Below are positions 1 through 12,563 of a stretch of DNA of 12,563 nucleotides, piece after piece. The number at the start of each line of letters is the position of its first letter. Within the stretch, counting starts at the first letter, position 1. The position numbers were made by a program, and so were the translations under genes. The stretch is from Trichonephila clavata. Taxonomy: Eukaryota. The notes beneath the pieces are model-generated. The model was not told where the DNA came from. It was given only the letters and a program-made list of their open reading frames with translations, and made no database searches. The DNA lies in assembly GCA_019973975.1 (NCBI GenBank), contig BMAO01019611.1:1-12563 (forward strand), given 5' to 3'.

Positions 1-1095
1 AAAGAAACATGCTTAACAAATTTCAAGTAATGGGTCTAACAATTAAAAACAGGATTTTTTTTCTGTAACTCCTCTTGACCCCTCGCAACCCTCCTTGGGG
101 GTCAATTTTCGTTTTACTCTTTGTTAGAGGAACTCTATTCCATGAAAGGAACATGCCTACCAATTTTCAAGCAGGATGATCAAATAGTTTAAAATGGAAA
201 TATTTATCAATTACGCCTCTTAATCTCCGAAATAAACTTAGTAGTTCATATTCGCGAAACCCATTTTGTAGCGGTTCTCTACTTTACGAAAGGAATCTGC
301 TTATCAAATTTCAAGACTGTACGTCTAATAGTTTAAAAATGGGGATAATTATCTCTAACGCCACTTGAGCCCCGCAACGCCACTTCTGGGTCTGTTTTCA
401 CAAAACCAATTTTGTAGGGGAATTGCACACTATGAAAGGAATCTGCTTAGCAAAATTTGAAGACTGTGCGTCCAATAAATTAAAAATGCAAAAAAAAATA
501 TATCAATAACGCCCCTTGAACCCCGCAACGCGGCCTAGGGTCGATTTTCACAAAACACATTTTGTAGTGTATCTCTATCCTATGAGAGGAATCTGCTTAC
601 CAATTTCAAACTGTGCGTCTAATAGTTTAAAAATAAAAATAATTATTTATATCTGCCCTTAACACCCCTTGGGGGTCAATTCTCCCAAACCTGTTTTGTA
701 GCGGATATTTACTCCATGAAAGAAACATTCCTACCAATTTTCAAGCAGGGAGGTGAAGTAGTTTAAAAACTAAAATATTTATCTAGTACGCCACTAAATC
801 CCCCGCAACGCCATTTAGAGGTCTGTTTTCGCAAAACCTTCTTATAGCTGATCTCTACTCTATAAAAGAAATCTACTTATCAAATATAAAACTGTGCGTC
901 TAATAGTTTAAAAATGGAAATAATTATCTATAACGCCCTTAAGTCCCGCAACGCCACTTGAGGGCAATTTTCACGAAACCCATTTTGTAGCGTATCTCTA
1001 CCCTATGAGAGGAATCTACTTACTAAGTTTCAAGACTGTACGTCTAATAACTTAAAAATCGGAATTTCTAACGCCCCTTAAACCCCGCCCCCGCA
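1..1095. repeat. Satellite-like tandem array (left arm of large palindrome), unit ~143-150 bp, ~7.5 copies, truncated by window start
   Basis: Seen in sequence. The landmarks TATGA(A/G)AGGAAT and CCCCGCAACGCC recur at about 141/288/431/581/715/861/1005 and about 86/376/526/806/947/1083. Neighbouring units are only about 75-85% identical. The array is the mirror image of 2471-3578 on the other strand. Confidence 0.9.
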
Positions 1096-1650
1096 AATAA
1101 TTGCTGCTAATTTGAAATTACAAACAGACACTTCAATTTTATTTATTTGTATAGATATAGATTGGGATTATAATAACTATTGTTTAAATGTGACTAAAAA
1201 TGTAAATAAAAAAAAAAAGGATTAAAACTAACCCTAAAACTTATCAATTTTTTGTTTCTTGCATTGCTTTTTGCTTATGAAGCCTTGATTTATTATTTTT
1301 AAAAGTGCATCCGAAACAGCCGATGCTCTACTTAACTGAACAGTTGAGATAACTATCATAAAAAAAAATTATGGCACGTGTCAGCGTATTATCATGTGCG
1401 CGTAAATTATTATGTCTCATGAAGAGCATCGGTCGCCAGTAACCAAAACAACGACTTCATTAGCTCAGCTTGGCGTTTAATTTGGCGTTCATCTTGGCAT
1501 TCAGTTTCACGTTCACCCGTATAGTTTCCGTTCCCTAAGAATACGGGAATAAAATATAGCCTATGTTACTCCCCGTTAATGTAGCTTTCCATTAGTGAAA
1601 GAATTTTTAAAATCGCACCAGCCGTTTCCGAGATTAGCCGGAACAAACAA

Positions 1651-1672
1651 CAGACAGACAGACAGACAGACA
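1651..1672. repeat. (CAGA)5 microsatellite in core segment B. Its mirror copy at 1913-1942 is interrupted (gtctgtctttctgcctgtctgtctg)
   Basis: Seen in sequence. Confidence 0.9.
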
Positions 1673-1737
1673 AAAATTTTAAAAATTGGTTTTTTTGTTA
1701 TGAGTACCGTATATACTTTTAGTGCATTAAGTAAAAA

Positions 1738-1850
1738 GCTGCTAATTTGAAATTACAAACAGACACTTCAATTTTATTTATTTGTATAGATTATATATAT
1801 TATACAAATAAATAAATTGAAGTGTCTGTTTGTAATTTCAAATTAGCAGC
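1738..1850. repeat. About 113-bp near-perfect hairpin at the palindrome axis (A, 10-bp ttatatatat, A')
   Basis: Reverse-complement symmetry seen in sequence. The only blemish is one T indel (tttt vs ttt). Confidence 0.9.
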
Positions 1851-2470
1851 TTTTTACTTAATGCACTAAAAGTATATACGGTACTCATAACAAAAACCAA
1901 TTTTAAAATTTTTGTCTGTCTTTCTGCCTGTCTGTCTGTTTGTTCCGGCTAATCTCGGAAACGGCTGGTGCGATTTAAAATTCTTTCACTAATGGAAAGC
2001 TACATTAACGGGGGTAACATAGGCTATATTTTATTCCCGTATTCTTACGGGAACGGAAACTATACGGCTGAACGTGAAACTGAATGCCAAGATGAACGCC
2101 AAGCTGAGCTAATGAAGTCGTTGTTTTGGTTACTGGCGACCGATGCTCTTCATGAGACATAATAGTGTTACGCGCACATGATAATACGCTGACATGTGCC
2201 ATAATTTTTTTTTATGATAGTTATCTCACTGTTCAGTTAAGTAGAGCATCGGCTGTTTCGGATGCACTTTTGAAAATAATAAATCAATTCTTCATAAGCA
2301 AAAAGCAATGCAAGAAACAAAAAATTGATAAGTTTTACGGTTAGTTTTAATCCTTTTTTTTTTATTTACATTTTTAGTCACATTTAAACAATAGTTATTA
2401 TAATCCCTATCTATATCTATACAAATAAATAAAATTGAAGTGTCTGTTTGTAATTTCAAATTAGCAGCAA

Positions 2471-3960
2471 TTGTTTGCGGGGGCGGGGGTTTAAGGGGCG
2501 TTAGAAATTCCGATTTTTAAGTTATTAGACGTACAGTCTTGAAACTTAGTAAGTAGATTCCTCTCATAGGGTAGAGATACGCTACAAAATGGGTTTCGTG
2601 AAAATTGCCCTCAAGTGGCGTTGCGGGACTTAAGGGGCATTATAGATAATTATTTTCATTTTTAAACTATTAGACGCACAGTCTTTATATTTGATAAGTA
2701 GATTTCTTTTATAGAGTAGAGATCAGCTATAAGAAGGTTTTGTGAAAACAGACCTCTAAATGGCGTTGCGGGGGATTTAGTGGCATACTAGATAAATATT
2801 TTCGTTTTTAAACTACTTCACCTCTCTGCTTGAAAATTGGTAGGAATGTTTCTTTCATGGAGTAAATATCCGCTACAAAACAGGTTTGGGAAAAATTGAC
2901 CCCCAAGGGGTGTTAAGGGCAGATATAAATAATTATTTCTATTTTTAAACTATTAGACGCACAGTTTGAAATTTGGTAAGCAGATTCCTCTCATAGGATA
3001 GAGATACACTACAAAATGTGTTTTGTGAAAATCGACCCCTAGGCCGCGTTGCGGGGGTTCAAGGGGCGTTATTGATAATTTTTTTTTGCATTTTTAATTT
3101 ATTGGACGCACAGTCTTCAAATTTTGCTAAGCAGATTCCTTTCATAAAGTGCAATTCCCCTACAAAATTGGTTTTGTGAAAACAGACCCAGAAGTGGCGT
3201 TGCGGGGGCTCAAGTGGCATTATAGATAATTATCCCCATTTTTAAACTATTAGACGTACAGTCTTGAAATTTGATAAGCAGATTCCTTTCGTAAAGTAGA
3301 GAACCGCTACAAAATGGGTTTCGCGAATATGAACTACCAAGTTTAATTTCGGGAGATTAAGAGGCGTAATTGATAAATATTTCCATTTTAAACTATTTGA
3401 TCATCCTGCTTGAAAATTGGTAGGCATGTTCCTTTCATGGAATAGAGTTCCTCTAACAAAGAGTAAACGAAAATTGACCCCCAAGAAGGGTTGCGAGGGG
3501 TCAAGAGGAGTTACAGAAAAAAATTCCTGTTTTTAATTGTTAGACCATATACTTGAAATTTGTTAAGCATGTTTCTTTTGTTGAATAGGGATCCACTAAG
3601 AATGTATTTTAAGCAAATCAAGTTCTGCGGGGGGGGGTGCAGGGGTTACTGGGACGTATTGACAAAAAAAATTACTTTTTTCGAGCAACAAGGACTATAA
3701 TAATGAAATTTGGTTTGCATTTTTCTTTTGTTGAGTTGAAATCCGCTAAAAGCGGTTATTTTGGAAAACGGCTCTCAACGGATTACGGGGATATTGATAG
3801 TAAAACTTTTTTTTTTTCTGTTAGATTTAGACTTGAAATTTGGCTTGCATGTTCAATTTACGGTGTAGAGATCCACCGAAAATTGGTTTTGGGGGAATCC
3901 ACTTGGTTTTTGGGTTACGAAAGAGCAAACATCATTCTATGCATCAATTTTAGAGATTTT
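2471..3960. repeat. Satellite-like tandem array (right arm, inverted orientation), about 10 units of ~145 bp, increasingly degenerate toward 3960
   Basis: The landmark GGCGTTGCGGG(G) and its variants recur at about 2621, 2764, 2906 (degenerate), 3048, 3197, 3340 (degenerate), 3485, 3627, 3775 (degenerate) and 3900 (degenerate). Positions 2471-3578 are the reverse complement of 1-1095 at about 97-99% identity. Confidence 0.85.
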
Positions 3961-4088
3961 TAGAAAGCACAAATTAGATGAGTTCTGCCCCTTTTTTTTA
4001 TCAACAGGCGACAGTTACAGGTATAAGTATATTTTTCAATACAATCGAATTCTTAATGCAGGACTTAGATATCAATAATTTATACATA

Positions 4089-4121
4089 TATATAAGCAGT
4101 AAAAATTTATAAAACATCAGG
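4089..4121 (+). promoter_or_regulatory. Possible core promoter upstream of gag: TATATAAG at 4089-4096 and the Inr-like CATCAGG about 25 bp downstream
   Basis: A motif-level reading in an AT-rich context, about 120 bp upstream of the gag ATG. This is weak evidence. Confidence 0.25.
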
Positions 4122-4211
4122 AAATTCCAGCGAAGCGGGCGGGTAACAGCTAGTTATATTATATAGATAACCCCGATCTACGTAACAATTTAGTGTCAGA
4201 AGTGGGATTTT

Positions 4212-4742
4212 ATGCCAATAACAAGAGCGATGGAGGAGCAACTGAAGGCTCTGTTGGAGGGTATCAATGCTTTGAGAAGAGGCCAAGAAGAGCTGAGAAA
4301 TACTTTAGAAAAGAAACTAGCAGCAGTTGAAGAGGAAATGGAAATAAAAAGGATCAAAGAGCAAGTTGAAGAAAGAATTGAAGTGGCTGGAAATTTTAGC
4401 CAGCGAGTAGAAGATCTTGAAAAGAAGCTTCTAGCTTGCGAGAATATGACGAAGGGAATAAAGTTTGTGCCTGTCTCACCAGTATCAGTGAAACTGTCCA
4501 CCTATGACGGAAATACCAACTGGGAGGTGTACAAGATTCAATTTTCGATAATATCGGAAGCCAATGGATGGACTGAACGGGTCAAAGCATTTCAGTTAGC
4601 AGCATCCCTTAGACGAGAAGCCGCTGAAGTACTGCTGACTCTTCCCGACACAGAGCTGTTAAATTTGAACTCCCTCTATAATGCTCTGGATCTTCGGTTC
4701 GGACAGAAATACCCCAAATATACTACGCTCGCCTGCAGTTGA
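4212..4742 (+). pseudogene. gag: Gag N-terminal coiled-coil plus capsid-like domain (W..W..QF......W.E..K...L, ending LDLRFGQK). It is frame-shifted into the next segment
   Basis: The translation shows the retrotransposon Gag capsid signature. It is followed by a TGA, and the next frame continues with the conserved (L)KRRIQKTGENLQEYAFEIKRLANLAF. Confidence 0.75.
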
Positions 4743-5431
4743 AAAGAAGAATCCAGAAAACCGGAGAAAATTTGCAAGAGTATGCCTTCGAAATAAAAAG
4801 GCTCGCCAACTTAGCTTTCTCAGATTTCTCAGCAAATGTGCGAGAAATGGTTTCTCTCGAGTATTTCGTTGACGGACTGAAAGATGAAGAAATGCAGAGA
4901 GCTGTAAGAATGGCACATGTTCAAGATCTAAAATCTGCACTGTTATATGCCCTGAAATTTGAAGCCGCCACTCAAGCCAGTCTCAGGGTTCACCATTCCA
5001 TCCGAGGAGCTAGAGTGCTTGCAGATGAGTCACGTGAATCTCCGTGTGTAAAGGATATTGAGAAATTGATAGATGAAATTCAAGGTTTAATGACTCAACG
5101 TCAAAAACAGAGGAGACGTATCATCACGTGCTGGGAGTGTGGTGAATCAGGGCATATCAGAAGTAACTGCCCCCGAACAAATAAGGAAGATCACTGCACA
5201 AAGTGCTGGGGATGCGGTGGAGCAGGGCATCTGAGAAGTAATTGCCCTCGAGTAAATCAGGAAGATCCTCACCGTGCAAGTGTAATCGAGTCTAAGAAAG
5301 TGTGTGGAAACCGAAAAGGATCAGCAAAGGGGAATGGAGGTGTCCCTTTAGGAAGACAGGAGAACAGTAAACACTGCTCGAGAATCGAAAAGAAATTTGG
5401 CGTAATAGATCCAGTAGACCGCCAAGTATAA
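4739..5431 (+). pseudogene. gag: Gag C-terminal / nucleocapsid with two CCHC zinc knuckles (CWECGESGHIRSNC, CWGCGGAGHLRSNC)
   Basis: Two CX2CX4HX4C motifs are seen in the translation. There is no D(T/S)G protease motif before the integrase module. Confidence 0.8.
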
Positions 5432-5442
5432 CGCCATCGACA

Positions 5443-5925
5443 TTGGAATCGGACCCGTGGAATGATGAGAGCGTCCGAAAACATCAATTGGCTGATCCTG
5501 AAATTAAACCAGTAATAGAATTCAAAGAGTCATCTGATGAAAAGCCCAGTTGGCAATACATAGCCTCTTTCCATCCTACAACGCAGCGTTACTGGGCTCT
5601 TTGGGACTCTCTGCACCTGAGAAATGGTGTTTTATATCGAAAATGGGAGTCTGACGACGGAAAAGCATTCAGATGGCAATTAATACTCCCAAAGACGAGA
5701 ATATCGGCAGTCCTAAACGAACTCCATTGTAGTCCAACTGGTGGTCATTTTGGTGTTATGAAGACCTTACAAAAAGTTCGAGAGCGCTTCTACTGGAACA
5801 ATGTGCGGAGTGACGTTGAGAAATGGTGCCGCACATGTGATCCCTGTGCTGCACTTAAAGGTCCAAAAAACGCACCAGAGGACGACTCCAGCTGTATAAT
5901 GTGGGAGCGCCTTTCGAACGAATAG
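5443..5925 (+). pseudogene. int: Pol region immediately preceding integrase, plus the integrase N-terminal HHCC zinc-binding domain (LNELHCSPTGGHFGVMKTLQKVRERFYWNNVRSDVEKWCRTCDPC)
   Basis: H-x3-H ... C-x2-C pattern. The upstream segment W..W..L.LRNGVLYRK...QLILP is typical of gypsy pol at the RNase H to integrase junction. Confidence 0.8.
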
Positions 5926-6491
5926 CTTTCGACATCTTAGGCCCACTTCCAAGATCATCAGACGGCAACAACAACATCCTGGTTGTCATGGACTACTTCA
6001 CTAAGTGGCCTGAAGCCTATCCTATATCCGACCAAGAGGCCCCGACTGTTGCAGAGGTTCTAGTTCAACACTGGATCTCAAGATACGGAGTTCCTCTACA
6101 ACTGCACTCCGATCAGGGAAGAAACTTTGATTCTGCAGTTTGCAAGAGACTGTGCGAGATACTCGGCATTGACAAAACCCGGACAACAGCTTTACATCCT
6201 CAGTCTGACGGCATGGTAGAGAGGTACAATCGGACCATCCTGAACAGCCTCTCTCTCCTGGTATCCAGTAATCAACAGGACTGGGACCAGAAACTGCCTC
6301 TTTTCCTGCTTGCCTACAGGAGTGCCGTCCACGAGACAACTGGCTATTCCCCATCCCAGATGCTCTTCAGACGTGATCTTCGTTTGCCTTCAGATCTCTT
6401 GTTCAGCCGGCCACCAGATGCTCCATTGGCGCCTGAGGAGTATGTCGAGAAACTCCAGGCACGAATGGAGGAAATGCATCATTTTGGCTAG
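5901..6491 (+). pseudogene. int: Integrase catalytic core (DDE: D in FDILGP, D in HSDQG, E in MVERYN)
   Basis: Retroviral-type integrase core motifs in the translation. The end of this segment overlaps the next frame (frameshift near 6480-6495). Confidence 0.85.
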
Positions 6492-6762
6492 GGAAAGAAT
6501 CAGCATGGCTTCAGAGGAGATGAAGACCCGATACGACGCAAGAGCAACCGGACACGACTTTCACGAAGGCGACAAAGTGTGGTTATGGAATCCGAAACGT
6601 CACAAAGGACCCTCTCCGAAGCTGCAGACCAACTGGGAAGGTCCTTACACAGTCCTAAAAAGACTGAATGACGTTGTGGTTCGGATACAGAAATCACCAC
6701 ACACAAAACCGAAGGTAATACATTATAATAGGCTAGCCCCTTACCTTGGGCAAAGAGAATAA
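6310..6762 (+). pseudogene. int: Integrase C-terminal GPY/F (SH3-like) module (GDKVWLWNP...KLQTNWEGPYTVLKRLNDVVVRIQ). No chromodomain. Stop at 6760-6762
   Basis: GPY/F-type motif in the translation. Only the 3' part of this ORF (from about 6490) is the real reading frame. Confidence 0.75.
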
Positions 6763-7159
6763 GATCCTTAACTTCAGACCATGGTCACTAACTATTTTGT
6801 GAATAATGTAAATTGTGTTTCTCTTTTCTATTCCCTTAGTTTTATTTTAGTGTTGTAATTTATGTTTGTATTTTAAATTTATTTGCTTTTTGCTGTTGAG
6901 TATTTGTTACTTTATACTCGATTATTATGTTAATAGGTTATGTCTGTAAATAGATGCCTCTTACTCAGGGAGTGTACTGCTCGGGACGTGCAGTCTTTGA
7001 GGAGGAGGCAATGTTACGAATTTTGTATAAAATAATGTAAATAATTTGTATTTGGATGTGCAATGCCTTTATATTACTCTATGCTATATTTATTTCATGT
7101 TAAAATTGTAATATTCACAAGCAACGCCGTCCCTTACGTTATAATGGCGATTCAATGGG

Positions 7160-7356
7160 AACTTGGCGAAATATTGGCGATAGAGCCAAGTTGGCATAAT
7201 TTTTGGTGCCCATGTTGGCGAGTTCGGGACCCTCTGAATTCTTCTAGAAATTCGGGAAGAAATCTTCTAATTTCAAGACCTATGATGCAAGTGGATCTTT
7301 CTCGAAAGGTCCGCGAGGCCTATAAATAGAGAGATGCCCGCCGAAAATCAATCAGT
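7160..7356 (+). promoter_or_regulatory. Arthropod-type core promoter: TATAAATA at 7321-7328 and Inr TCAGT at 7352-7356. Upstream is an array of TTGGC(G/A) motifs at 7164, 7175, 7191, 7204, 7215 and an NFI-like palindrome TTGGCgatagaGCCAA at 7175-7190
   Basis: Motifs and spacing seen in sequence. The TATA-to-Inr distance is about 30 bp. No credible ORF lies downstream, so this could be the U3 promoter of an LTR remnant. Confidence 0.45.
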
Positions 7357-8510
7357 CTGGTTTTGACTTGCGATTGGTAGACTTGCCTTGACCGTGATGA
7401 CTAGCGATTATATATAGCTCGGCTGTTCAATAGGACTAGCGGTGCTTGTGAATAATCTTTTACATACGTGTATGTTAGATACTGCTAATTGTGTTTGAGT
7501 GCTATTGAAGGTGCGTGGAACTTTTGAGATTTATTTTGCGAATATTACTGCTGAATCCTGTATTTCAAGGATTAGATTTTCTACAACAAATTCTCATCGC
7601 TCTTAAAGAACTGTCTTGTTCCTTGCGACTAATTTGCATAATATCCTCGAACCCCGATCAACGTAGCAGTATGAAATCTTTAAACTGTAGGATAACTCTA
7701 TTTGCATTGGTCCACCCAATTTTTCTTCTTTTGTCAATTTCTTTTCTTTTTATAAAAAAAAAAACATTTCTGATTGTTTCTTTTTCACTTTGAAGTGAAA
7801 TACCTCCTATTTCTTGAGACATTTTTATATTTGTGAGTGCATTATGAAAGTGTAAAATTTGTGCATTTTTCAAATTCTTTTGGGAAGGAAAATTCAGTTA
7901 TGTACCACAATTCTCAAGCGATAACATGATTATTTCCCAGAATTTCTGAGCGTTGCAAATATTAATGGGTTACATGATCTCTCTCTTGTAACTGTGAAAT
8001 CATGATGCACACATTCTTGGATGAATGTTTAAAAACAAATTTTTAACCTTCTGAGCATAAGCATCCTTTTGCATTACATACTACTTGTATTTCAGCTGAG
8101 ACATGGTTTGTTTTTTTTGTTTTTGAACAAATTACTATTAACCAAGAACATTTTTACTGTCTCTCTACTAAAAGTACAAAGCATTCATAATTAGCATATC
8201 AGCAGCCTAATGCATAACGTTAGAATGCTACAAATTATACGCGTACAGTTTTCCTTAGCATATTTTTATTTGAATGTAATGTAGTGACGTTTTTTATCGC
8301 TTTCAAAATGAATGAATCAGGGGGGAAAAAATGTTTCATGCGTATTTATAAATTAAATATCTGAACTCGTGCTGATTTGGAAACATTCATGACCCCATCA
8401 ATATTTTAAAGCATATAATTATCAATAAAATCACTTGCATGTACCTAAAATCTGAGTAGGAAGCTAAATTCTTTCGATTCTTAACAATTGAAAAACACGA
8501 GTGCTGGTTT

Positions 8511-8660
8511 ATCCATTGGGCGCCCAGGGGCCCTGAGAGACCCGGATAAGCTGGACTTAACCAGATTTTCTGGTTATAAATTTCGATCCTTCAGTGCCAA
8601 GGGAGAACCTGTAGATGTTCTGCGCCCAGGGCCCGAAATGAGCTTAAATCGGCACTGAAA
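8511..8660. other. Locally GC-rich island of about 150 bp. It carries the duplicated 13-mer GCGCCCAGGG(G)CCC at 8520-8533 and 8622-8634, the small palindrome CCAGATTTTCTGG, and the inverted 8-mers TCAGTGCC / GGCACTGA at 8590-8597 and 8651-8658
   Basis: Seen in sequence. Its identity is unknown; it might be a small non-autonomous element or a SINE-like fragment. Confidence 0.3.
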
Positions 8661-9039
8661 AAACCAATTCTCCTAACTTCCTCACCACTCCACTGAGGTT
8701 TTGGGGATGAGTTTCATATAACATGCAGCAACCTTCATTGCACCAAATATTTGGTGAAATAATTCATAGAAACCAAGGCGGGTCTTTCGACGATGTAGTT
8801 CCACTTAATGGACAAGTTCTATTTTGTAAACAACAACATTGAGTGGAACCCTCACTTACTTCCGGTGTAATGTTAATCTATCGGAAAACATCGAAATTCA
8901 ACTGAGTTTTTCAAACTTTTAATGCAAGTTTTGGAAACTTTTTTGCACTATATGGATAGAAGATGATCTGTAGATTTCAGATTCAGGATTTTATAGTATT
9001 TATTTCAGTATCTTTTCTAAAATACCTTGTTAATTTTTT

Positions 9040-10700
9040 AGCTCAAAGCAATGGAGATTTTGCCTGAACCGGAAGAAGAAAAGGGTACTAAAATGACTGC
9101 AGCGCCCCCATAGTAAGCTTTATGGTCAAACTTGTCCATAGAGTGAGCAGAGTAAAAAAAAATTACATCTGCATGGTTCATCACTTTCCACATTTGTTGA
9201 AGCTCCAGCACGTTTAAAAGTACGGGCATTATCCGATATCACCATGGAACACAAACCTCGTCGAGCAATAAAACGTCGAAAAGGAAGAAGAAATGTGTCA
9301 GTAGTCATATTACCGACCAGCTCTAAATGAACCCTTCTTGTTACTTCACAAGTAATTAACAGTATATATTGTTTGGCATCACTGTTTTGACGAATAATGG
9401 TCCTGCAAAATCAATCCCTACAACTGAAAAGGGGGGGGGGATTCTGTTACGCGGACGTCTAGAAGAGGAGCGATAACTTGATTTCCTGGATTAGAGTTAA
9501 ATCTTTTACAAATAATGCACTTTTTTGGGAGAGACTTTATAGTCTGACGAGCTTTCAAAATCCAGTATTTCTCTCTCACCTGCACCAATGTGTGAGATAC
9601 ACCAGAATGAAATACTCTTTTATGTGACTCCCAAATTAACAATTCAGTTAACGTAGACTTGGAAAGAAGAATAATAGGATGTTTCTCATTCGCTGATAAA
9701 TAAGTAGTTTTTCCTAGTCTTCCTGTGACTCTCAGAACACCGTTGTGATCAAGGATGGGGTTCAAACACAATAACTTGGAATCTTTTTGTAAAGATTTAT
9801 CACTCTTCAAGCAAGTAATTTCCCTGGAGTAAAAATCATTTTGAATTACTTTCACCCAAAATATTTCTGCTTTGGAGAGTTCTTCCCTTTTCGAAGTCTT
9901 TCCTTCTGCGAAAAATATAAGCCGTAACTCTTAGCAGTTTAAGAAAACTACTATATTTGTCTGGATCGACAATTTTCTCGTGAGTTATTGTTAAGTTGAC
10001 AATAAGACTGAATTTCAACTCAACAGTTTCAGAATCTATTGATTCAAATCCTTTTAATTTGGGCCAAAGGTTTTCAGAATCTTTTAAACATTCAGGACCG
10101 TGCCACCATTCTTCGAAATTTATAAGCTCTCTGCTAATTATGCCTTTAGTCAATAAGTCAGCAGGGTTTTGTTTACTACTGCAATGCCTCCAAGATACAG
10201 GGTCTGTGTTTTCTTTAATTTCTGAGATTCTATTGGAAACGAAAGGTATAAATTTGGATCCTGAGCCGTTAATCCAATATGGCACAATCCCCGAGTCACT
10301 CCACAGTATTATTCTTTTAATATCCTTGAAAAATCTCTTAAGATATTTCACTAATCTAGCAGCAATTACAGCACCCATTAATTCTAACCTAGAAAGAGAT
10401 CTTTTTAATACAAATAACGAATCTAGTATTAAAATTGTTATCAGAAATTTTATATCTTAAGTAGGCCACAGCTCCAAAAGATTTAGGTGAAGCATCCGAA
10501 AATACATGTAACTGTAAATCATTTCTATTAATTAAATTTGTGGGGGAATAGTAGTATCGCGGAATCTTTAAATTTTGCAAATGTTCAATTTTTTTACACT
10601 TTTCTATAACCCCTTGTTTTATTTGTTCTTTCATAACCGAATTTTTCCTCTCAAATAATACTTCAAAATGTTTTAATCCGGAAGCAGGCACGCACACGAT
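9040..10700 (-). pseudogene. pol: BEL/Pao-family LTR-retrotransposon pol fragment: RT-RNase H junction (LQLHVFSDASPKSFGAVAYLRY), RNase H (WSDS..VPYWI ... NPADLLTKG), integrase HHCC (HPIILLSKSTLTELLIWESHKRVFHSGV ... CIICKRF) and the start of the integrase core (GIDFAGP ... FIARRGLCSMVISDNARTFK). It is truncated on both sides and frameshifted
   Basis: Motifs read from the minus-strand ORFs 10389-10748, 9836-10378, 9418-9855, 9126-9308 and 9038-9229. One frame break coincides with the C10 homopolymer (plus-strand G10 at 9431-9440). Confidence 0.8.
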
Positions 10701-10732
10701 ACTAACGTTAATGGTCGCGCGGAATGACTGAG

Positions 10733-10746
10733 TCTCTCTCTCTCTC
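10733..10746. repeat. (TC)7 microsatellite at the upstream (protein-N-terminal) truncation point of the BEL/Pao fragment
   Basis: Seen in sequence. Confidence 0.85.
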
Positions 10747-11863
10747 ACACCCCAATCTTTTTTTTAAATTATTTTTACTATACACGATAAAAATCACAAT
10801 TCTAGCAAATAATTTAAGTAAGAGAAAGCATACTTACCTACTTTCAAAGACTTTTCAATTTTTGTTTGATAATTTGAGAAAAAATCCAATAAAACTGAAT
10901 TTAAACGTGCGAGACCTTATTAAAGGACGCAAATCACTGCCACTTTTCGCTAACACTATAGGAACGTCATTTCAATGCATTTTTATTTTCATTTCATGTT
11001 CATCGCTTTTTCTGAGATTTTGTGAAGAAACGTTTGCCACTCCGAAAAAAGAGGGAGATATGTGACAAATACATTAAAGTTCCTCTGAAGATTGTCATAT
11101 AGGTGGATACTGTCAAGGTCATTGGTCAAATTTTAAAATATAAATTTAGACAAAAATTTAATCCCGGGTTTTCGTGATTGGAAAAACACCAGGATCCCGG
11201 GCTGCAAACCCTAACCCAAAGAAAAGTCGTGAATATGGCGAAGTGGATAGCAGTCAGACACAGTAGATCACCGAAAAACTCCTCATATCCTCGAATCTTT
11301 ATATTTTTCTTTTTAACAAAATGAAAAGTCACTTTATGTCATTCACTCTATAAGGATCTACTCCAATTAAATTTCTTTTAAAAGTAGCCCAAATTATAAA
11401 AATATTGAAAGAGTAAAAGGAGACAAATACTGGAGAAGGAGCAGGAGGAGCAGTTTCACTGGGTGGGCTGAGCCTCCCAGTGATTTGATTGGCTGATCCA
11501 TTCAATCCTATCGGTGGGCGTGGAAAATACAGATGGCACGTTCGGAGTGAACGGCATATGTTGTAAGAAACCAGAGAAAAGAAAAACTACGTGAAACAGA
11601 AAAATAATTTAGAAAAAAGTATTTTTATTTTGGAACCATCTTGCTCAATTGCCAGCTAACAGCTATGAATTAGAATAAAAAGGAGTATCGCGAACGGGCG
11701 CCATGTCAGCTCGCGATGAAGGGAGAGTTGATTTACGGGGAATGAAGTCATTTACAAAATGAAAAATAATAAAATGAGATACTGATATAATTAAACAAAA
11801 GAGGTCCCGTGCTACCATCTGGTGGCCGGGGAAAGAGACGGAAGATGATCCAAGCGCAAAATT

Positions 11864-12026: not shown

Positions 12027-12563
12027 TTTTTTTTTAAAGTTCCCATTTGCATTTCTGGTGAATTACACCCTGAGCCGTTTGGCGTAGGGGAAATTCACGA
12101 AATGCTGGTCGAGAAGAGCTCTTGGTCTTTTGAGCGAGGAAGGCACTGGTGGGTCATATGCAGGCTGATTTTGTATAAGTTCATTGGGAATTTGTGGTAT
12201 TTTAACAAAGAAACGTTTTGAAACATTTTGTATGTAAGGAAGAGTGGGTTGCACTTTTAAATCACGGTAAATGACTTCATTCCTAACATACCAGGGAGCA
12301 TTCACTATCTGTCTCAAAATAGAGTTAGAAAGTGTGTGCAGTTTACGGATGTGATACATGCCGGAGGAGCCCCAGATGGGGGAACCGTACAGCATGATCG
12401 GTCTGATGATTGAGTTAAAGAGCAAAACATTGTGCCTGATCGCTAGTTTGCTCTTCTTAGAGAGTAGCTGTTTCAGCATACTATGAACAATGTTCGCCTT
12501 TCAGCGAGCTTGTTCGATATGATGGGCAAAAGTTAATTTTGCGTCTAAAAACAACCCTAGGTA
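12027..12563 (-). mobile_element. 3' end of a jockey-clade non-LTR (LINE) retrotransposon. It holds the RT C-terminal thumb (YLGLFLDAKLTFAHHIEQAR*KANIVHSMLKQLL ... IRPIMLYGSPIWG ... NAPWYVRNEVIYRDL), stop at 12063-12065, a 27-nt 3' UTR and an A9 tail (plus-strand T9 at 12027-12035). It extends beyond the window end and is a pseudogene, with an in-frame stop near 12495
   Basis: Translation of minus-strand ORF 12063-12479 plus my own translation of 12480-12563. APWYVRN and LYGS..WG are hallmark jockey/I-type RT C-terminal motifs. Confidence 0.8.

Follow-up and report, generated by a model that had tools for sequence, protein, structure and literature searches.

A dead copy of a probable gag-integrase retrotransposon family in the spider Trichonephila clavata

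The known classes of non-autonomous long terminal repeat (LTR) retrotransposon come mostly from plants, and are either non-coding (TRIM, LARD) or code for gag only (TR-GAG, Quinta, Sabrina). Those most akin to the element reported here, i.e., TR-GAG of Coffea and Arabidopsis, RLG_Sabrina_A, RLG_WHAM and RLC_Giselle of wheat and barley, and RLG_Quinta with its partner RLG_Cereba, are likewise internally deleted elements that kept their LTRs, primer binding site (PBS), polypurine tract (PPT) and part of their coding sequence. They carry the PBS and LTR termini of their autonomous partners, which are thought to mobilise them, and their intact gag open reading frame (ORF) suggests that its protein contributes to particles (PMC13570524, PMC5738225, PMC11302176). 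Non-autonomous LTR families with leftover fragments of reverse transcriptase (RT), RNase H or integrase (IN) are common as well; those of sugar beet keep 'at least one POL-associated domain', and domain content forms a continuum (PMC13570524). We report here on a 12,563-nt stretch of DNA from the spider Trichonephila clavata (contig BMAO01019611.1, assembly GCA_019973975.1; hereafter the window, whose features lie on the forward strand unless stated otherwise), in which positions 4169-7672, going by sequence comparison, very probably represent a dead copy, truncated at its 5' end, from a family of non-autonomous Ty3/gypsy LTR retrotransposons found in araneid spiders. Elements of this family, termed gag-IN, join Gag in frame to a complete integrase, and of this structural identification we are highly confident.

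TR-GAG-type elements kept gag, sometimes together with the protease (PR), and lost the integrase, and they belong to plants, whereas here a complete integrase is present, fused to gag, in an arachnid. Gag is thus not the sole coding capacity, as it is by definition in TR-GAG, and the consensus 940-aa ORF of the family (see below) sets it apart from LARD and TRIM elements, defined by an internal region that codes for nothing. The pol remnants of the sugar-beet families are partly decayed and patchy among copies, whereas here the consensus encodes an intact Gag-IN with strong synonymous bias in the integrase. BARE-2 of barley (cited in PMC13570524), which is packaged by BARE-1 and retains part of the polyprotein, shows the opposite of the loss seen here, since it lacks a functional gag and kept pol. 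It resembles the present element in being a defective derivative that depends on a close autonomous relative, namely BARE-1. Outside the realm of active transposons, GIN1/GIN2, PEG10, Arc and other host genes also code for a gypsy-type integrase or gag without RT (PMC3424704), but these are single-copy, LTR-less and syntenic genes, whereas here we deal with a multi-copy, LTR-bounded transposon. In the searchable literature, whose coverage leaves out subscription journals and Repbase and so provides weak evidence, we found gag-only or fragmentary-pol cases and no described family with an in-frame fusion of Gag to a complete integrase. The gag-IN family is apparently an undescribed subtype of partly coding non-autonomous LTR element.

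Five overlapping forward-strand ORFs cover 4212-6762. Pfam matches on successive ORFs were to zf-CCHC (E 5.6e-8, two knuckles), Integrase_H2C2 (1.4e-20), rve (2.8e-10) and Integrase_p58_C/SH3 (1.6e-12), with SH3_Tf2-1 also matched in the C-terminal part of the integrase. The gag portion (4212-5299; ORFs 4212-4742 and 4739-5431) comprises a coiled-coil N-terminus, a capsid-like core that starts at 4482 and a pair of CCHC knuckles. Next come a relic of the RNase H C-terminal tail and RNase H-integrase linker (5300-5451, NRKGSAKGNGG...ENSKHCSRIEKKFGVIDPVDRQV.TPSTLES), and then the integrase (5452-6762), which consists of an N-terminal extension, an H2C2 zinc finger (5689-5859; HH 5725-5748, CC 5827-5847), a DDE catalytic core (5910-6230; D, D and E motifs at 5913-5945, 6102-6119 and 6210-6230), a C-terminal SH3/GPY domain (6568-6744; GPY 6634-6654) and a stop codon (6760-6762). 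The initial annotation of this DNA, made from the sequence alone, had described just such a pairing of a two-knuckle Gag with a complete-looking HHCC/DDE/GPY integrase, and the Pfam matches and located motifs bear it out. It had further stated that protease, RT and RNase H are absent. A rescan of the 850-aa conceptual protein, with its four frameshifts corrected, and of all three frames of 5180-5470 matched gag-knuckle and integrase domains only, with no match to protease, RT or RNase H; nor did the three-frame scan uncover a protease or RT motif concealed at 5250-5450. Protease and RT are accordingly missing in every frame, while for RNase H the claim needs amending: most of it is gone, but its last ~10 codons are retained.

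When the coding region was aligned to its sister copies, four frameshifts were mapped (+2 nt at ~4718, -1 nt at 5427, -1 nt at ~5862 and +1 nt at ~6482), matching the four that had been noted near 4740, 5435, 5910 and 6485, and no nonsense substitution was found in the coding region of the window. The first lesion breaks the gag frame and the last two, both in homopolymer runs, break that of the integrase; three of the four sit in repeats of short length, namely an AT dinucleotide and runs of six A (A6) and four T (T4).

Querying a large protein collection with the fused protein returned Ty3/gypsy models of araneid spiders only (Trichonephila clavipes, Araneus ventricosus and Argiope bruennichi), the best identities, 83-87%, being to T. 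clavipes. Gag and integrase queries both led to one araneid Ty3/gypsy lineage, so the two halves share their ancestry and do not stem from unrelated families. The gag core was 74-80% identical to most T. clavipes gag-IN proteins, compared with 54-57% to the gag of P0002-type models, and a query with the gag-IN protein P0010 matched mostly ordinary integrases.

As gene models can conceal sequence in introns, DNA was fetched for the relatives, and we compared gag-IN loci L001, L002, L005 and L006, on four T. clavipes contigs, with the autonomous loci L003 (a 6.4-kb copy with both LTRs) and L004 (a second copy, its 5' end cut by the contig end). In both autonomous copies gag ends ...SSSKQEN*, and pol (GKLIYGHLAGRRLP...VVDTGANVSII...) runs on in the -1 frame. 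Against these parents, the window presents a deletion junction at 5290-5312, where the gag end ...VIESKK (5282-5299) is joined in frame to VCGNRKGS; the junction of the family reads ...TCWAAGAAAGTGTGTRG.MACCRAAAAGGATCAGC..., in protein ...ESKK then VC.NRKGS. Homology to the parent resumes at GTGGAAATT...AGAAAAGGATCA, i.e., at V-E-I-R-H-R-K-G-S, the end of RNase H (VEIRHRKGS in the parent). The missing block, comprising protease, RT and most of RNase H, measures 2101 nt relative to L004 and 2145 nt relative to L003, less than the roughly 2.5-3 kb estimated initially. The borders given at the time have to be moved too: gag-derived sequence does not end about 5250 but reaches ~5299, and the pol segment starts not about 5445 but at ~5300, in the gag frame.

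The identity of the segment downstream of the junction was established from RT-bearing models, which at their RNase H-integrase boundary read ...EIRHRKGSAHGNADALSRRPCPESCKYCSRIEKKFGVIGPIVRQVTTPSTSALDPWSDESVRKDQLADPEIKP.... The relic aligns to HRKGSAHGNADALSRRPCPESCKYCSRIEKKFGVIGPIVRQVTTPSTSALDPW of P0021, P0019 and P0088, and the closest RT-bearing relatives (these three and P0053) match exactly, with their RNase H tail and linker, what follows the knuckles in the window. The stretch behind the knuckles (VCGNRKGSAKGNGG...ENSKHCSRIEKKFGVIDPVDRQV) therefore derives from this tail and linker and is not new sequence. The lesion at 5427 is a private 1-nt deletion (CAAGT-ATAAC) ~120 nt 3' of the junction, and not the junction itself. 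We also considered a programmed frameshift at the window's gag-to-IN frame change and rejected it, given that this deletion is private and the sister copies read through. In the autonomous copies, gag ends CAG GAA AAC TAA (L003 7852-7880, L004 769-800) and pol lies in the -1 frame after an overlap of ~10 codons, with no obvious canonical X XXY YYZ slippery heptamer at the gag end. Since the gag-IN deletion takes out this frameshift site, every translation product of the derivative would be a fusion protein. The pentamer CAGGA stands in the same frame at both edges, the gag end and the RNase H end, and is a plausible switch point.

The same junction recurs in other copies. Window positions 4169-7206 are colinear across it with all four T. 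clavipes gag-IN loci at ~84% identity, and the junction sequence is common to all five copies (alignment A1). Among the 120 top proteins, the junction motif was found in 11 and an intact RNase H tail in 32, and none of the 11 junction-bearing proteins contained a YxDD or DTG motif; at least 11 T. clavipes loci carry the junction, and at four it has been verified on DNA. Short T. clavipes models (P0010, P0022, P0028, P0044, P0082, P0095, P0078, P0104 and others) consist of gag with two knuckles, ...SKKVC(S/G)NRKGS..., the linker and the integrase, and P0010 and P0022 occupy genomic spans just ~340 and ~100 nt longer than their coding sequences. With both halves from the same lineage, a shared junction and no hidden protease or RT, the earlier proposal of an internally deleted non-autonomous gypsy derivative is supported. 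Two of the sister copies carry secondary insertions, L002 at ~4886-5765 (~0.9 kb, in gag) and L006 at ~8511-11078 (~2.5 kb, in the integrase). The gag coiled coil (4287-4483) is an E/K/Q-rich repeat region that varies in length among the window, L001, L002, L005 and L006; through repeat losses the N-terminus of the window's gag is ~270 nt shorter than those of the T. clavipes copies, its frame being kept.

The gag-IN copies also share a duplicated zinc knuckle. In the window, a tandem duplication spans 5128-5267 (65-nt copies with a 75-nt period; 5128-5192 and 5203-5267 are 81.5% identical) and yields CCHC knuckle 1 (5129-5170, CWECGESGHIRSNC) and knuckle 2 (5204-5245, CWGCGGAGHLRSNC). Counting knuckles over 57 gag-containing proteins, we found a single one in every RT-bearing gag (more than 40 P0002-type models, L003, L004 and the Araneus gag-PR forms), compared with two in Trichonephila gag-IN and two to three in Araneus gag-IN. 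As a marker, the duplication argues that the Trichonephila-type copies are one lineage and not a series of new deletions. These knuckle numbers were seen in the window, P0097, P0099, P0078 and others, and the gain in two spider families may be convergent.

Around the coding region lie the LTR, PBS and PPT signals of a retrotransposon, which the initial annotation did not see. Homology to the sister copies, and to the end of the element's own 3' LTR, begins at 4169 with the last 19 nt of the 5' LTR (4169-4187, AACCCCGATCTACGTAACA); the remainder of this LTR is missing, and what precedes 4169 bears no relation to the element. A PBS-like motif (4191-4208, TAGTGTCAGAAGTGGGAT) starts 3 nt past the LTR end, as it does in all copies, and reads TGGTGTCAGAAGTGGGAT in the sister and autonomous copies, a G>A change having produced TAG in the window where its relatives have TGG. 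Neither the window nor the fetched loci yielded a tRNA gene, and Rfam gave no match in the window. Just past the motif, at 4212, lies the gag ATG. Downstream of the integrase, a PPT (6999-7011, GAGGAGGAGGCAA) abuts a complete 3' LTR of 657 nt (7012-7668, TGTTACG...ACGTAGCA) that matches both LTRs of L001, L002, L003 and L006, and gag-IN and autonomous copies alike have conserved the PPT at this position (tgaggaggaggcag then TGTTACG). The adjoining GTAT (7669-7672) is presumably the 3' half of a 4-bp target-site duplication whose 5' half was lost with the 5' LTR. Such TG...CA LTRs, the placement of PBS and PPT, and an HHCC-DDE-GPY/F integrase are those of Ty3/gypsy; the pol order PR-RT-RNase H-IN is missing from the window and the gag-IN copies and present in L003 and L004. 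The window element is a derivative of Ty3/gypsy (Metaviridae), not an autonomous member. Because its 5' LTR is cut to 19 nt, its PBS mutated from TGG to TAG and its ORF interrupted by four frameshifts, this copy is unable to move: it is an ordinary dead transposon, not a gene, and is now immobile.

The T. clavipes copies preserve more complete ends. L002 is flanked by a perfect 4-bp target-site duplication (GTAT/GTAT), and L006 (ATAC/ATAT) and the autonomous L003 (ATGT/ATAT) by duplications matching at 3 of 4 positions. LTR pairs are 92.0-92.7% identical in the gag-IN copies, compared with 93.9% in L003, which places the activity of both forms in roughly the same, rather distant, period. The 3' LTR of the window is 75-79% identical to the T. 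clavipes LTRs. In L002, L003, L006 and the window, all duplications or half-sites are GTAT, ATAT, ATAC or ATGT, which suggests that the integrase prefers an (A/G)TAT-like target.

L003, a locus whose T. clavipes models are annotated 'Pol polyprotein from transposon 412', resembles the gag-IN elements in its homologous termini (TGTTACG...ACGTAACA), PBS, PPT, gag, RNase H tail and integrase, the latter 88-89% identical to that of the window at the nucleotide level; it differs in its protease, RT and RNase H, which lie behind the -1 frameshift at the gag stop, and in its single CCHC knuckle. The RT-bearing T. clavipes models P0021, P0019, P0088, P0045 and P0053 are 83-87% identical in the integrase. 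Pairing of a non-autonomous with an autonomous element has relied on a common PBS, LTR termini and LTR body (Cereba/Quinta, PMC11302176; also PMC5738225), and in T. clavipes all three are found. The termini (TGTTAC(G/A)...CTACGTAACA) and PPT are common to both forms, the PBS is near-identical and at the same site, with copy-level mutations (TGGTGTCAG(A/G)AGTGGG in gag-IN compared with TGATGTCAGAAGCGGG in L003), and gag-IN and autonomous LTRs are 89-92% identical, as gag-IN LTRs are among themselves.

These comparisons point to the following scenario. In an ancestor, a single internal deletion of ~2.1 kb would have excised the gag stop, the -1 frameshift site and all that follows down to ~10 codons short of the RNase H end, so that Gag came to share a frame with the remnant of RNase H and the complete integrase. 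The resulting ~4.4-kb element retained LTR termini, PBS and PPT, and spread to many loci. Taken by majority over the four T. clavipes copies, the consensus is a single continuous ORF of 940 aa, from the gag ATG to the integrase stop, and the master copy therefore encoded an intact Gag-IN polyprotein. The 6.4-kb autonomous element resident in the same genome would then have lent its protease and RT/RNase H for the packaging, reverse transcription and processing of the gag-IN RNA, and such mobilisation in trans is the mechanism that the shared signals best support. The Gag-IN product itself probably gave capsid and integrase to the particles, which would make the element 'semi-autonomous'. We place about equal weight on this product contributing to the element's own spread and on its not doing so.

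No intact full-length paralogue was present among the copies examined, and it is the consensus of four that restores the frame; the longest ORF in any single copy is at most 563 aa, with the junction-crossing ORF of L006 measuring 557-563 aa. To gauge constraint on the coding sequence, we used the ratio of nonsynonymous to synonymous substitution rates (dN/dS), which between copies was 0.32-0.44 in gag and 0.15-0.54 in the integrase. The window integrase is 88-90% identical to those of T. clavipes at the nucleotide level, and its dN/dS relative to the T. clavipes consensus was 0.10 over 383 codons (23/6/56 differences at the three codon positions), compared with 0.39 in gag and 0.61, i.e., relaxed, in the relic of RNase H tail and linker. 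Provided that the junction had a single origin, the window and the T. clavipes copies are connected through gag-IN elements only, and the integrase would then have been under strong purifying selection in the deleted lineage.

Several points weigh against this interpretation. The integrases of T. clavipes gag-IN and autonomous copies are inseparable, 1.4 kb of sequence offering just 1 diagnostic site (gag has 4), and their LTRs are phylogenetically indistinguishable. Exchange among LTR elements by template switching is well known, and recombination during reverse transcription well documented (PMC6894440, PMC11302176); the purifying-selection signal in the integrase could have been imported by recombination with autonomous elements, instead of reflecting constraint on the Gag-IN product. 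Moreover, the case for trans-mobilisation draws on shared cis signals, the partner comparison having been made on T. clavipes copies. The breakpoints are fixed no better than to about ±10 nt, because the junction gained small indels later, and the three frameshifts located in repeats could in principle be assembly errors.

The strongest alternative is that the gag-IN element is a pure parasite and its coding capacity a passive leftover, whose product is unneeded for spreading or even hampers the helper; the ORF would look conserved only because copies are young compared with their master, and because their IN and LTR sequences are time and again refreshed by template switching with autonomous RNA packaged alongside. 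We regard this as less probable than not by a fair measure, yet as a serious contender. It accords with the star phylogeny that gag-IN and autonomous copies of T. clavipes form in both IN and LTR, and with a gag-IN family of Araneus (described below) that amplified to at least 48 near-identical members without a DDE core, so that catalytic integrase is not needed in cis there. It accords poorly with the window, whose LTR has diverged by 21-25% and which yet combines the low integrase dN/dS with a preserved junction and knuckle duplication, whereas constraint is relaxed in the RNase H relic that adjoins the integrase and shares its ORF. The perfect ORF of the four-copy consensus, and the intact ORFs of 781 aa and 850 aa in Araneus derivatives, likewise speak against this alternative.

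The fusion architecture is not confined to Trichonephila. The gag-IN-like P0097 of Araneus ventricosus is encoded by an intact 2346-nt ORF (781 aa) on L007, and at 90% identity it falls into a cluster of 48 members, a good number of which measure 781-830 aa and sit on different contigs. Compared with the autonomous Araneus locus L008, this family has lost PR-RT-RNase H and, in a second deletion (L008 3382 to ~3818, common to L007 and L009), the DDE core, leaving gag-H2C2-SH3. At the DNA level, P0097 is 82-83% identical to L008 and 73% identical to the window over 260 nt, the sole matching stretch; being far closer to L008, the Araneus family therefore arose independently. Nonetheless, on the 3' side its deletion ends at INHHKE (matching EIQHRKG), just 1-3 codons away from the Trichonephila breakpoint. 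A second Araneus derivative, P0110 (L009), has an intact 850-aa ORF coding for gag-PR-H2C2-SH3, in which the protease is kept, and its RT-RNase H deletion is bordered precisely by two QH codon pairs that stand in the same frame. A further case is P0148 (833 aa) of the pseudoscorpion Cordylochernes scorpioides, which consists of gag, RNase H tail and integrase; its gene span of 2622 nt leaves no room for a concealed PR-RT-RNase H. The surrounding locus (L010, 2431-6143) amounts to a complete LTR element of 3.7 kb, with only the P0148 domains encoded in its interior; as its 494-nt LTRs are 97.2% identical, it is fairly young. Trichonephila, Araneus and the pseudoscorpion acquired the gag-IN architecture independently of one another, and between the spider genera, though not beyond them, the breakpoints nearly coincide. 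A freshwater mussel, Sinanodonta woodiana, has a cluster of proteins (P0165; 729-775 aa, known as gene models only) with a protease followed by a complete integrase and without RT/RNase H, which may be another pol-deleted derivative or could be a gene-model artefact.

Such recurrence could also mean that gag-IN elements are generated time and again from autonomous ones through a deletion hotspot, for instance by RT template switching from the gag/pol frameshift region to the RNase H end or from a subgenomic RNA, an explanation that we consider improbable. Breakpoints do recur in two spider families, at the gag end and within ~5 codons of E-I-R/Q-H-R-K-G, the pseudoscorpion model joins gag to the same RNase H tail, the QH pairs of Araneus frame one deletion precisely, and gag-IN and autonomous copies of T. 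clavipes cannot be told apart in IN. However, all five Trichonephila-type copies have the same idiosyncratic junction, non-parental bases included, and the 75-nt knuckle duplication is common to gag-IN copies and found in no RT-bearing copy; even the diverged window keeps both features. Spliced RNA is an unlikely source as well, and we rejected a splicing origin of the deletion, since the parent gag end (CAAGCAGGAAAACTAA) has no GT donor, though AG sites occur at the 3' edge.

That the locus is the relic of a domesticated host gag-integrase gene, the alternative raised initially, is very improbable, and we reject it. Gag-derived and integrase-derived host genes are known (PMC3424704), and both halves show protein-like conservation. 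A domesticated gene, however, would be single-copy and LTR-less with an intact ORF, whereas here an LTR stub, PBS, PPT and full LTR bound the unit, its LTRs are shared with an autonomous transposon, at least 11 T. clavipes loci on different contigs carry it, sister copies have target-site duplications, and the window copy contains four frameshifts. A chimeric juxtaposition, be it two unrelated elements side by side, a nested insertion or an assembly artefact, is next to negligible: the domain order is unusual and the window rich in other transposon fragments, but Gag and IN belong to one lineage, both edges are colinear with single autonomous copies, and the same junction exists at four DNA-verified loci of an independent T. 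clavipes assembly.

We return to our preferred interpretation, a once-deleted family that moved with the help of an autonomous partner. The bias in its integrase as against the relaxed relic, the recurrence of the architecture and the rise in knuckle number hint that internal deletions are not all equal and that certain combinations of retained proteins may be favoured. If true, gag-IN elements would constitute a natural experiment in which functions that must act in cis (capsid, integrase) are separated from those that can be borrowed in trans (protease, RT). A more far-reaching proposal, which we put forward tentatively and think rather unlikely as a whole, is that Gag-IN elements form a recurrent, selectively maintained 'semi-autonomous' class in arachnids, hyperparasites with their own capsid and integrase and a borrowed protease and RT/RNase H, whose extra knuckles would aid them in the competition for RNA packaging.

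The rest of the window is rich in repeats. Positions 1-3960 are occupied by a ~145-bp satellite array arranged as a giant near-perfect palindrome, centred near 1775-1813, whose arms are 94-99% complementary (e.g., 665-890 with 2684-2909, and 936-1092 with 2480-2636). The array stops ~200 nt upstream of the 5' LTR stub, and may be linked to the loss of the 5' LTR, the breakpoint of which lies at 4168/4169; the AT-rich ~200 nt in between (3960-4168) match no gag-IN or autonomous copy. On the minus strand, 9000-10750 contain a fragment of a BEL/Pao-type LTR retrotransposon in several ORFs (Peptidase_A17, E 3.7e-13; Integrase_H2C2, E 4.4e-10). Also on the minus strand, a 138-aa ORF at 12063-12479 (…NVLLFNSIIRPIMLYGSPIWGSS…) had no Pfam match at E<=0.01, and we take it to resemble the C-terminal region of a non-LTR retrotransposon ORF2.

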